Shown in pieces: positions 23,601 through 28,291 of a stretch of 64,000 bases of DNA (the first letter of the stretch is position 1; each line of letters begins with the position of its first letter). The DNA is from an uncultured Nitrospiraceae bacterium (lineage in GTDB: Bacteria > Nitrospirota > Thermodesulfovibrionia > Thermodesulfovibrionales > Dissulfurispiraceae): positions 32,001-96,000 of the forward strand of contig CAMTVO010000010.1 of NCBI GenBank assembly GCA_947085205.1, written 5' to 3'. The position numbers were made by a program, and so were the translations under genes. The notes beneath the pieces were generated by a model that saw only the letters and a list, made by a program, of their open reading frames with translations, was not told where the DNA came from and did no database searches.

Positions 23601-24626
23601 ATGGAAAAAACCGACCTCAAGGCCTTATCGAAGCAGGAATTGGAATCTTTTGTCAAAGAATCAGGACTGCCTTCGTTTAGGGCAAAACAGATACTGCACT
23701 GGATTTATGAAAAGCATACACAATCGATTCAGGAGATTACAGAACTCTCAAAAGACCTGGGAGAAAAACTTTCGGAAAAGGCGTATATAAGTAATCTTGA
23801 ACTGCTCGACAGACAAATCTCTAAAGATGGCACAGAAAAATTTCTTTTCGGGCTTGAGGACGGAGAGACCATCGAGAGCGTCTTAATTCCTGACGAAGAC
23901 CGCTTAACGCTCTGCATTTCATCACAAGTAGGCTGTGCAACGGTTTGCAGATTCTGTCTTACAGGCAAATTTGGACTAAAAAGAAATCTCAATGCCCATG
24001 AAATAGTTGACCAGATAATATTCACAAGCAGAACCATTAAGCCAAGACGGCTTACCAATGTTGTATTAATGGGCATGGGAGAGCCTCTGGCGAATTTCGA
24101 GAATGTTGTTGAGGCATTGTGGCGGATTACAGAATTTATGAAAATCTCTCCGAGGAGGATTACCCTTTCCACATCAGGCATTGTGCCTAAAATCCTGGAA
24201 CTCCCCCAAAAAGCTCCTATGGTGAATCTGGCCATATCTCTGAATGCAACAACGGATGCTGTAAGGGATTACATAATGCCAATCAATAAGACCTACCCGA
24301 TTAAACAATTGCTTGATGCATGCCGTAAATTCCCGCTTCCGGCAAGGAGAAGGATAACCTTTGAGTATGTGATGCTGAAGGATATTAATGACACACCTGA
24401 AGACGCAAAGAGGCTTATAAATCTACTTAAAGGGATACCCTCAAAAGTGAACTTAATACCCTTCAATCCCTATGAAGGCTCTGAATTTAAGAGGCCGGAT
24501 GATAAAAGGGTTTTGGAATTCCAGAATATTCTCATTAAGGGCAATGTAATCGCCCTTATCAGAAAGAGCAAGGGGCAGGATATTCTTGCAGCCTGCGGAC
24601 AGTTAAAGGCAAGATATGCGTTATAG
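23601..24626 (+). CDS. rlmN: 23S rRNA/tRNA m2A methyltransferase RlmN
   Basis: CISSQVGC..CRFC, MGMGEPL, ITFEYV, AACGQL. Confidence 0.95.
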   Translation: MEKTDLKALSKQELESFVKESGLPSFRAKQILHWIYEKHTQSIQEITELSKDLGEKLSEKAYISNLELLDRQISKDGTEKFLFGLEDGETIESVLIPDEDRLTLCISSQVGCATVCRFCLTGKFGLKRNLNAHEIVDQIIFTSRTIKPRRLTNVVLMGMGEPLANFENVVEALWRITEFMKISPRRITLSTSGIVPKILELPQKAPMVNLAISLNATTDAVRDYIMPINKTYPIKQLLDACRKFPLPARRRITFEYVMLKDINDTPEDAKRLINLLKGIPSKVNLIPFNPYEGSEFKRPDDKRVLEFQNILIKGNVIALIRKSKGQDILAACGQLKARYAL

Positions 24627-24654
24627 CGACTTCCTTGCGCTACAACGCTCAACG

Positions 24655-25425
24655 CTATAATGCCTTACACTTCAGCGTTTCTTCCATCATCAGGATGTAT
24701 TTTGTGTAGTCAAAGCCGAATTTCATCAGTTCTATTTCATCACTCTTTATTTTTTCTAAGGTTTTTTCATCAACATTAAACATCTCAAGGAACTTGCTCT
24801 CGAAGACAAATCTCCTGAATCTGTCGACATCATAGCATGCCATGTAAAATGCCTTCTGTTTTTTCTCGTCAAGGGAATGCCCAGGGAGGTTTCTTCTGAA
24901 CAGGATTTCCTTCCATCCCCTGTTCATGTCGTCATAGACATCCACTCCCTGATCATCCCTCCAACTCTTTATTGTCCACGCTGCATCTTCGTTGAAGCCG
25001 AGGCAGTGCGGCTCTTTAATGAAGAAATAGAATTCCTCGGTTATAGGCTCGTTTATTTTATCGTCCATTTTTTTAAGTGATGCCTGTCCAACAGGATAGT
25101 ACCTGCAGTTTGCAGGCCTGTCCGAGTATATTGTGCAGCCCTCTGCTGTTACAAAGGGACATTTTCTTTCTGCATCTTCGTTCATCTTCAAGAATACGAA
25201 GGGATGGGAAGTCTTCTCGTCTATCTCTATATAAGTAGAGTTGGCCAGAAAATCGCCTGATGAGATGCCCATCCTGTTTTTAAGCCTGAGAATGTCGTAC
25301 GGGGTGAGCATAATATCAATATTGCTGCAGCATTTTGTGAAACATCCGATGCCTTTATGACATCTGAATTTGAATCGTGAATCTATGGAAAGTTGTACTT
25401 TCTCTACATGCTTCATGTTTAACAT
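24655..25425 (-). CDS. YkgJ family CxxCxxCC cysteine-cluster protein
   Basis: FRCHKGIGCFTKCC, CPF, CTIYSDRPANCRYYP; start uncertain. Confidence 0.8.
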   Translation of the reverse strand: MLNMKHVEKVQLSIDSRFKFRCHKGIGCFTKCCSNIDIMLTPYDILRLKNRMGISSGDFLANSTYIEIDEKTSHPFVFLKMNEDAERKCPFVTAEGCTIYSDRPANCRYYPVGQASLKKMDDKINEPITEEFYFFIKEPHCLGFNEDAAWTIKSWRDDQGVDVYDDMNRGWKEILFRRNLPGHSLDEKKQKAFYMACYDVDRFRRFVFESKFLEMFNVDEKTLEKIKSDEIELMKFGFDYTKYILMMEETLKCKAL

Positions 25426-25529
25426 CGCGGGCCTCCAAAAAAACAATTTATTTATTTTAACACGCGGCAGCCAAAAAGGGCTACCGCAAATTGACTTTTA
25501 TCAAGGCGTTTTAGTATTCTAAATGTTTA

Positions 25530-25607
<78 letters not shown>

Positions 25608-25608
25608 T

Positions 25609-25685
<77 letters not shown>

Positions 25686-25694
25686 TATACGAAC

Positions 25695-25770
25695 GGTGGG
25701 CGTAGCTCAATGGCAGAGCACTGGACTGTTGCTCCAGTGGTTGCGGGTTCGATCCCCGTCGCCCACCCCA
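25695..25770 (+). tRNA. tRNA with His-type body (G-1:C73) but GTT anticodon
   Basis: Acceptor G-1 GTGGGCG/CGCCCAC C73 CCA; anticodon arm ctgga-ctGTTgc-tccag. Confidence 0.9.
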
Positions 25771-25868
25771 AAAATCGTGATGGGTAAAGCGTGAAGCGTA
25801 AAGAGTCAAAAATTTTTAGCATTAAAATCCATACTCATTACCGATTACTCGTTACGGATTACGAATAT

Positions 25869-25942
25869 GCGCCTGTAGCTCAGCGGATTAGAGCATCGGC
25901 CTCCGGAGCCGAGGGTCGGAGGTTCGAATCCTCTCAGGCGCG
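25869..25942 (+). tRNA. tRNA-Arg(CCG), CCA not encoded
   Basis: Anticodon arm tcggc-ctCCGga-gccga; GTTCGAATC. Confidence 0.93.
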
Positions 25943-26005
25943 TTATTAGTGAATAGTTATTAGTATTTAGTTAGTTTATTTTTACTATTCACTGTTCACT
26001 ATGCA

Positions 26006-27220
26006 CTATACACTATCTAATAAGTGGCCTAATTTCTTCTTCTTTGTTTTCAGATAAACGATATTTTTGTCGTGAGGTCTTGACTCTACCGATACCCTTT
26101 CAACAACCTTAAGTCCGTATCCTTCGAGGCCTATTATTTTCTTTGGATTATTTGTCATCAGCCTCATCTTTCTTACGCCGAGGTCAACGAGTATCTGTGC
26201 GCCGATTCCATAGTCGCGCAAATCCGGCTTAAACCCGAGTTTGATATTGGCCTCAACAGTATCGAGCCCTTTATCCTGAAGCTCATATGCCTTCAGTTTG
26301 TTTGCAAGACCTATACCCCTTCCTTCCTGCCTCATGTAGAGTATAACACCCTTTCCTTCTTTCTTTATCATCTCCATTGCCTTGTGAAGCTGGTCGCCGC
26401 AGTCGCATCTCTTCGAGCCGAAGACATCGCCTGTGAGGCATTCTGAATGCACTCTTACAAGCACCTTATCCTCAGGTTTTATCTCTCCTTTTACAAGCGC
26501 TATATGGACATTCGGGTCAACATCATTGGAATAGGCTATTGCTGTAAAATCACCGCCGTATTCTGTCGGCATCTGGACAGTCGCAACCCTTCTTACAAAC
26601 CTCTCTGTCCGCATCCTGTACTGAATCAGGTCTTTCACTGTTATGATTTTCATATTATGTCTTTCTGAGAACTCCATTAACTGGGGAACCCTCGCCATTG
26701 TCCCGTCGTCGTTCATTATCTCGCATATAACGCCTGCCGGATAGAGACCTGCGAGTCTCGCAAGGTCAACAGAACCTTCGGTCTGGCCGGCCCTCTGCAA
26801 GACACCTCCGGGCTTTGCCCTGAGAGGGAAAACGTGTCCAGGCCTTGCAATGTCTTCAGACTTTGATTGCGGATTTATGGCAGTAAGTATGGTAACTGCC
26901 CTGTCATGGGCGGATATTCCTGTTGTAACGCCTTTTTTTGCCTCGATGGATACTGTAAAGGCAGTGCCGAATGAAGATGTGTTGGCGTCGGTCATCATAG
27001 GAAGCTTCAGCTCTTCGACCCTTTGAGGCGTTAAAGAGAGGCATATAAGTCCCCTTCCGTGTTTTGCCATGAAATTTATAGCCTCCGGCGTGACCTTCTC
27101 TGCAGCCATGCATAGGTCTCCCTCGTTTTCCCTGTCCTCATCATCCACAAGGATAACCATCTTGCCCTTTGTTATGTCTTCAAGGGCATCTTCTATTGTG
27201 TTGAATTTATGTTTTTCCAT
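26006..27220 (-). CDS. ribBA: Bifunctional DHBP synthase / GTP cyclohydrolase II
   Basis: [40 protein letters not shown]. Confidence 0.96.
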
Positions 27221-27240
27221 CCTGAATCCTCCATAAAAAC

Positions 27241-27315
27241 AGGCTATGGGCAATAGGCCATAGGCAATAGGACAATCTATCGCTCTATTGACTATCGCCT
27301 CTTGCCTTTTGCCTA
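27241..27315. repeat. Heptamer hairpin in the ribBA leader
   Basis: aggctat gggcaat aggccat aggcaat ... ctattga ctatcgc ctcttgc cttttgc cta. Confidence 0.75.
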
Positions 27316-27433
27316 ACCTATTGAGTATAGCAAAATCGGTATATATCTTTCCATTTGGCTTATTTTATGAGAAAAATGTGGGAAAGGCCGAAAGTTCTGG
27401 TATAATTTAGTCAATATTTGCAAAGGAGCTGCA

Positions 27434-28291
27434 ATGGAGCAACTATCGCTGAAGACAGAGAAATTTTTCGACATCCTCAATACCGTCCTTTCTACTCTGA
27501 ATATCGATGAAGTGCTCACAACTGTCGTCAGAGAGATAAAATTCCTCCTCGGCGCTGACAGATGCACCTTGTTTTTGGTCGACAGAGATAACAACGAACT
27601 CTATTCAAAAGTCCTTCAGGCGGACAATCTTATAGAAATAAGGGTTCCACTCACAAAGAGCAGCCTTGCAGGCTATTCGTCCATAACAGGGACGGTCATG
27701 AATATAAAAGACGCATACGATGAAGTTGAATTGAAAGCAATAGACAGCGGCCTGTCTTTTGACAAAAGATGGGACGAAAAGAGCGGATACAGGACAAAAG
27801 GCGTGCTGGCAATACCTGTCAAGGCAAAAGGCGAGATTGTCGGGGTATTTCAGGCGCTTAACAAGCCGGACGGTTTCTCTGCCTCTGATGTCAGCATGAT
27901 GGAGCAACTGTCTTTTCTTTTAGGAATTGCCGTAAACAATGCACTTTCATACCAGACCATAGAGGAAGAAAAGAAGCTCAGAGAGTACATCATAGACGAT
28001 ATAGAAGAGGGCATTTGCATTCTCGATACAAAAAAGAGAATTATCGCTGCAAACAAATTCTTAGAAGTCATGAGCGGCATGAGATCTTCAACAGATGCCA
28101 TGGTTGGAGAATACTTCTTTGAACTCTTCCCGAATTTTGCAAATACACAGCTTGAAGAAAAGATAAACGAGGTATTCCTTTTTGGTTTTAAAAAGATAGC
28201 ATTGCTTGAAGTGCTCGAAGTAAAGATTATTCCGTACCTTGATGAAAAAGGAAGAGTAAAAAAGTTGATACTCATCTTTACGAGGGTATAG
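27434..28291 (+). CDS. GAF + PAS domain protein without output domain
   Basis: ADRCTLFLVD, DEKSGYRTK, LNK..F..D (GAF); IEEGICILD..IIAANK (PAS). Confidence 0.8.
   Translation: MEQLSLKTEKFFDILNTVLSTLNIDEVLTTVVREIKFLLGADRCTLFLVDRDNNELYSKVLQADNLIEIRVPLTKSSLAGYSSITGTVMNIKDAYDEVELKAIDSGLSFDKRWDEKSGYRTKGVLAIPVKAKGEIVGVFQALNKPDGFSASDVSMMEQLSFLLGIAVNNALSYQTIEEEKKLREYIIDDIEEGICILDTKKRIIAANKFLEVMSGMRSSTDAMVGEYFFELFPNFANTQLEEKINEVFLFGFKKIALLEVLEVKIIPYLDEKGRVKKLILIFTRV

Follow-up and report, generated by a model that had tools for sequence, protein, structure and literature searches.

A tRNA-His gene with an assembled asparagine anticodon in an uncultured Nitrospiraceae bacterium, and its probable origin as a base error

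Results

The window, by which we mean the whole 64,000-nucleotide stretch of DNA analysed, contains a cluster of four tRNA genes (Table 1), all of which pass the Rfam tRNA model (gathering score 29). The third gene reaches 68.7 bits and is labelled tRNA-Asn(gtt) by ARAGORN, at 25696-25770. Its G-1 (25695) pairs with C73 (25767) and is followed by G1-C72, giving an acceptor stem of 8 bp whose seven pairs after G-1:C73 are GTGGGCG/CGCCCAC. An anticodon stem CTGGA/TCCAG carries the loop CT-GTT-GC (25726-25732), which places T36 at 25730 and G37 at 25731, and the CCA end is gene-encoded (25768-25770). In the minimum-free-energy fold all eight acceptor positions are paired, including G-1:C73, and the T arm is formed; the D and anticodon arms of the cloverleaf are absent from that fold, and the cloverleaf assignment is that of ARAGORN and Rfam. 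An earlier annotation made from the letters alone (hereafter the sequence-only reading) had described G-1:C73, the 8-bp acceptor stem, G37, the CT-GTT-GC loop and a Pro-Arg-X-Arg cluster, and it proved exact on each of these points against the sequence, ARAGORN, Rfam and the fold.

The protein-coding neighbours of the cluster are ordinary housekeeping genes, for an RlmN-like radical-SAM methyltransferase, a CxxCxxCC-domain protein and a fused RibBA (DHBP synthase and GTP cyclohydrolase II). Together with GAF/PAS and T2SSE proteins these make up the proteins found around the cluster, and there is no synthetase among them. Two spacers contain short tandem arrays of period 7 and period 14.

Table 1. 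Features at and around the tRNA cluster (positions in the window)
Feature	Position	Strand	Evidence
RlmN-like radical-SAM methyltransferase	23601..24626	+	
CxxCxxCC-domain protein	24655..25446	-	
tRNA-Pro(TGG), first of cluster	25530..25607	+	ARAGORN; Rfam tRNA 64.7 bits
tRNA-Arg(TCT)	25609..25685	+	ARAGORN; Rfam tRNA 72.7 bits
tRNA-His gene, anticodon GTT as assembled	25695..25770	+	ARAGORN; Rfam tRNA; 71/73 identity to closest relative's tRNA-His(GTG); synteny
Anticodon position 36: T in assembly, G in all contigs from four public runs	25730	+	Contig alignment
Spacer with tandem arrays (GTAAAGC, GTTATTA, ACTATTC units among the two spacers)	25772..25862		
tRNA-Arg(CCG), last of cluster	25868..25943	+	ARAGORN; Rfam tRNA 68.6 bits
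Spacer with tandem arrays (units as above)	25942..26016		
Fused RibBA	26006..27253	-	

The tRNA cluster served as query against forty genomes from the same family or order, and 29 loci were retrieved. Five of them (L012, L016, L026, L028 and L029) have no tRNA after Arg(tct) within the retrieved DNA and stand outside the comparison; in the other 24 the tRNA directly after Arg(tct) is in every case His(gtg) according to ARAGORN, and in 12 of these 24 it is followed by Arg(ccg), the same order as in the window. On alignment, all 24 tRNAs carry G opposite T25730. Relatives' loci differ from the window at 2 to 18 of 84 aligned columns, flanks included, and the closest (L002, from genome G008) differs only at position 36 and at one T-loop base. 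Isotype was judged by pairwise identity: 71 of 73 bases are shared with the tRNA-His(GTG) of L002 as against 51 of 73 with the genome's own tRNA-Asn (78 aligned columns for the latter). By sequence comparison, then, 25695-25770 is the orthologue of tRNA-His(GTG) with one difference in the anticodon, at position 36, much as the sequence-only reading had proposed in ascribing a tRNA with His identity elements to one G-to-T change at 25730. tRNA-His is typically a single-copy gene in this group; at E<=1e-10 it was found once in 36 of the 40 relatives, twice in two and not at all in two.

The assembly (1.885 Mb in 65 contigs) is 89.7% complete, so that a missing second tRNA-His gene is not formal proof of absence. 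ARAGORN finds 43 tRNAs in it, with no other tRNA-His(gtg) in the 65 contigs, and blastn and motif searches of the assembly found no second His-like gene and no GTG-bearing His-like arm. The canonical tRNA-Asn, on contig C39, has U1-A72, G73 and A37 and lacks G-1, and so matches the features given in the sequence-only reading as normal for bacterial tRNA-Asn. The search for further tRNA-His(GTG) and tRNA-Asn genes that the same reading had recommended thus yielded no other tRNA-His and one canonical tRNA-Asn. The HisRS gene lies on a different contig from the cluster (C58; TIGR00442, 501.8 bits, cut-off 286.75), and no second HisRS scores above the cut-off in the assembly. Ile(gat) and Ala(tgc), tRNAs usual in rRNA operons, are also missing from the 43-gene set, which suggests that the assembly lacks the rRNA operon. 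Contig C59 carries a tRNA-SeC(tca).

Histidine codons are in normal use: CAT makes up 1.19% and CAC 0.61% of the 423,328 codons in long open frames of the assembly. When the hisS locus was compared with those of 24 relatives, CAT was aligned with His in 53% of cells and CAC in 68%, and AAT was aligned with Asn in 52% of cells and AAC in 45%; His was not within the top four residues aligned to AAT or AAC. This tally takes all stop-to-stop frames of at least 100 aa in the locus, among which possible non-coding overlapping frames dilute the signal and do not create it. A tally of HisRS alone was set aside as too small (7 CAY and 17 AAY codons, with one invariant-His column, CAT, and two invariant-Asn columns, AAT). 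The organism uses the standard genetic code and needs a tRNA that decodes CAY. With only one tRNA-His in the assembly and CAY in normal use, a fixed G36T would deprive these codons of their decoder.

Nine public runs contain part of the 4.5 kb around 25730. Run X1, in which 0.98 of the sampled words occur, is a possible source of the assembly, as are a co-assembly or another run. Logan contigs of X1, of X2 (same study as X1, different sample) and of X5 and X6 (two other studies) were aligned to 24000-27500; X3 and X4, further runs of the X1 study, lie outside this contig comparison. At 25730 the contigs, which were used in place of raw reads and which drop rare variants, read G at 752/752 depth in X1 (four contigs), 243/243 in X2 (one contig), 484.8/484.8 in X5 (one contig) and 27.4/27.4 in X6 (two contigs). 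No contig in any of these four runs reads T.

Two of the X1 contigs, records 4 (25652-25741, depth 174) and 5 (25723-25944, depth 142), are each one letter off the window and extend into species-specific spacer absent from relatives; both are from the same strain as the window. Their depths (142-174) equal those of the flanking single-copy contigs of X1 (146.5 and 135), which show 0 differences from the window over 1576 and 1585 bases. X2 yields a single 248-base contig (25626-25873) that covers the tRNA and both spacers and reads G. The X5 and X6 contigs over 25730 carry other differences (at 25738/25739 and at joints) and are from relatives, not from the same strain, so that same-strain support for G comes from two samples of one study. 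Across the tRNA cluster the summed depth in X1 climbs from about 146 to 836, and the contigs there fragment into pieces of 73-222 bases; in these samples the cluster is a repeat shared between genomes.

The T form was also sought elsewhere. The 23-base anticodon arm with a base other than G at position 36 had no exact match in the genomes of 185,579 species (one genome each) and none in 241 million metagenome records, the window's own genome possibly being excluded from both scans. The same arm with G, used as a control, gave at least 120 matches in many lineages. A pattern specific to the species, made of the 5' spacer and the tRNA with N at 25730, matched no metagenome record and is uninformative, the exact string of the species being absent from that collection. 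A limited literature search found no published tRNA-His with a GUU anticodon.

Discussion

The gene resembles bacterial tRNA-His(GUG) in having G-1:C73, an 8-bp acceptor stem, an encoded CCA and its place after Arg(TCT), and departs from it only at the assembled position 36 (T, not G), where the contigs of four runs read GTG. Its likeness to bacterial tRNA-Asn(GUU) is confined to the GTT anticodon, and then only as assembled. A37 beside the anticodon is the rule for bacterial tRNA-Asn; compared with the genome's own tRNA-Asn on C39, the window tRNA has G37 (25731) for A37, and it has C73 for G73. The bacterial tRNA-His identity set, as set out in PMC9976931, comprises G-1, C73 and G34 U35 G36, with the anticodon a lesser determinant than G-1/C73, and the same text gives tRNA-Asn identity as the anticodon plus G73.

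The nearest natural parallel is tRNA-ProX of Streptomyces and Kitasatospora, described in PMC10404621 as dual-identity tRNAs, with Pro-tRNA bodies bearing Asn or Thr anticodons. As assembled, the window gene shares with these a body of one identity that carries the anticodon of another, here Asn. Whereas the tRNA-ProX mismatch is inherited among relatives, the T occurs in none of the 24 relatives and gave no match in either arm scan. tRNA-ProX genes are additional to the canonical tRNA, whereas the window gene is the sole tRNA-His in the 89.7%-complete assembly and sits in the ancestral slot. A distinct synthetase isoform adjoins tRNA-ProX, whereas no HisRS lies near the window gene, the only match above the cut-off being on C58. 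Finally, none of the contigs of the four runs carries the change.

We consider it very likely that T25730 is a base error of this assembly and that the gene is an ordinary single-copy tRNA-His(GTG). T25730 is at most a rare variant, and the GTT anticodon of this gene most probably does not exist in the organism itself. In tRNA-His, an encoded G-1 is kept during processing, HisRS charges through G-1:C73, and CAY is read. The window gene would likewise be transcribed within a Pro-Arg-His-Arg tRNA cluster, retain its encoded G-1 in processing, be charged by HisRS via G-1:C73 and decode CAY. As to how the T arose, we infer that the wrong base was likely picked up where the assembler crossed a stretch common to community members and the graph was fragmented; in such tangles a contig can be led along an erroneous path of low abundance. 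Oxidative damage to guanine in library preparation would likewise be expected to produce G-to-T changes. Several considerations count against the error reading: assemblers normally take the majority path, the contigs may have missed a minority T allele, X1 is only a possible source of the assembly, and same-strain support for G comes from two samples of one study.

The sequence-only reading had held a sequencing or consensus error and a tRNA inserting His at AAY codons to be equally serious explanations. The error half of that pairing is borne out by the G in contigs of four runs and by the GTG anticodon of all 24 sister tRNAs, and the suppressor half is not. The same reading had looked to reads or sister genomes for G at 25730 as the outcome that would speak against a real change; G is what both the run contigs and the 24 sister tRNAs show. 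Its corollary, that a real change could require a second tRNA-His or editing, finds no counterpart in the data: a second tRNA-His gene was found neither by ARAGORN nor by blastn or motif search, and RNA editing is unnecessary, the DNA contigs already reading G.

The T might nevertheless exist in the natural population as a minor allele, or predominate in a sample outside the comparison, so that the sole tRNA-His gene carries G36U there and the assembler took that path. Consistent with this, contigs can miss rare variants, X3, X4 and further runs lie outside the comparison, and the assembly itself contains the T. We nonetheless think it unlikely, given that the G-bearing same-strain contigs of X1 stand at full flank depth (142-174 versus 135-146.5) and that the variant arm has no match in two large collections. 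tRNA-His is moreover single-copy in 36 of 40 relatives, with no second copy in the assembly, and CAY is in normal use, so that cells with the T would have no His decoder unless they carried another copy of the gene. If the T were real, the tRNA would most likely still accept His, to judge from the greater weight that G-1 and C73 have in His identity than the anticodon. Decidedly improbable is the specific case in which a real allele, present in a minority of cells or in an uncompared sample, makes the only tRNA-His gene a His-charged, AAY-reading, spontaneous His-for-Asn missense suppressor; a cell could tolerate such a suppressor only if it had more than one copy of the chromosome or a second, unassembled tRNA-His gene.

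A fixed and real T would make the gene product a His-accepting tRNA that reads AAY, that is, a natural missense suppressor or a means of deliberate mistranslation, with CAY left to a second tRNA-His encoded in the ~10% of the genome that is missing from the assembly. The intact G-1 and C73, with the anticodon only a minor determinant for HisRS (PMC9976931), would permit this; natural dual-identity tRNAs exist (PMC10404621); and a genome 89.7% complete, from which the Ile-GAT and Ala-TGC tRNAs of rRNA operons are missing too, has room for another gene. Yet the same-strain contigs read G, the gene occupies the ancestral tRNA-His slot and is not an extra copy, and apart from position 36 it is one T-loop base off the nearest relative's tRNA-His. 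The T is found in 0 of 24 relatives and in neither the genome nor the metagenome arm scan. A single HisRS match exceeds the cut-off, on C58, with no synthetase among the cluster neighbours, and H is outside the top four residues aligned to AAY. We therefore hold a fixed T to be very improbable. More improbable still is an alloacceptor shift, in which the former tRNA-His was remoulded into a second working tRNA-Asn. The GTT anticodon as assembled and the ARAGORN label Asn are what such a shift would give, but the gene has C73 and G-1 in place of the G73 needed for Asn identity (PMC9976931) and G37 in place of A37, a canonical tRNA-Asn is already present, the only tRNA-His would be lost, and the contigs read G. 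We give this possibility almost no credence.

Were the T real, it would be striking: a natural tRNA placing His at Asn codons in an organism without a normal His decoder. Under the reading that we prefer, of a base error in an ordinary tRNA-His(GTG) gene, the case bears on assemblies more generally. Because tRNA genes are almost identical, letter for letter, among community members, single-base errors can occur in them in metagenome assemblies, and a mismatch between anticodon and isotype in a MAG should be verified in reads before it is read biologically. Annotation pipelines would call the present gene tRNA-Asn and report a genome without tRNA-His.

The route to Asn-tRNA in this organism can also be sketched. 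No AsnRS scores above the NCBIfam cut-off in the assembly; the best matches to the model score 108 and 105 bits and presumably represent AspRS and LysRS. GatB is present (629.7 bits). The lack of an AsnRS above the cut-off, together with the presence of GatB, makes it probable that Asn-tRNA is made via the indirect ND-AspRS/GatCAB route. Matches related to AsnRS and GatB lie on contigs C1, C19 and C38.
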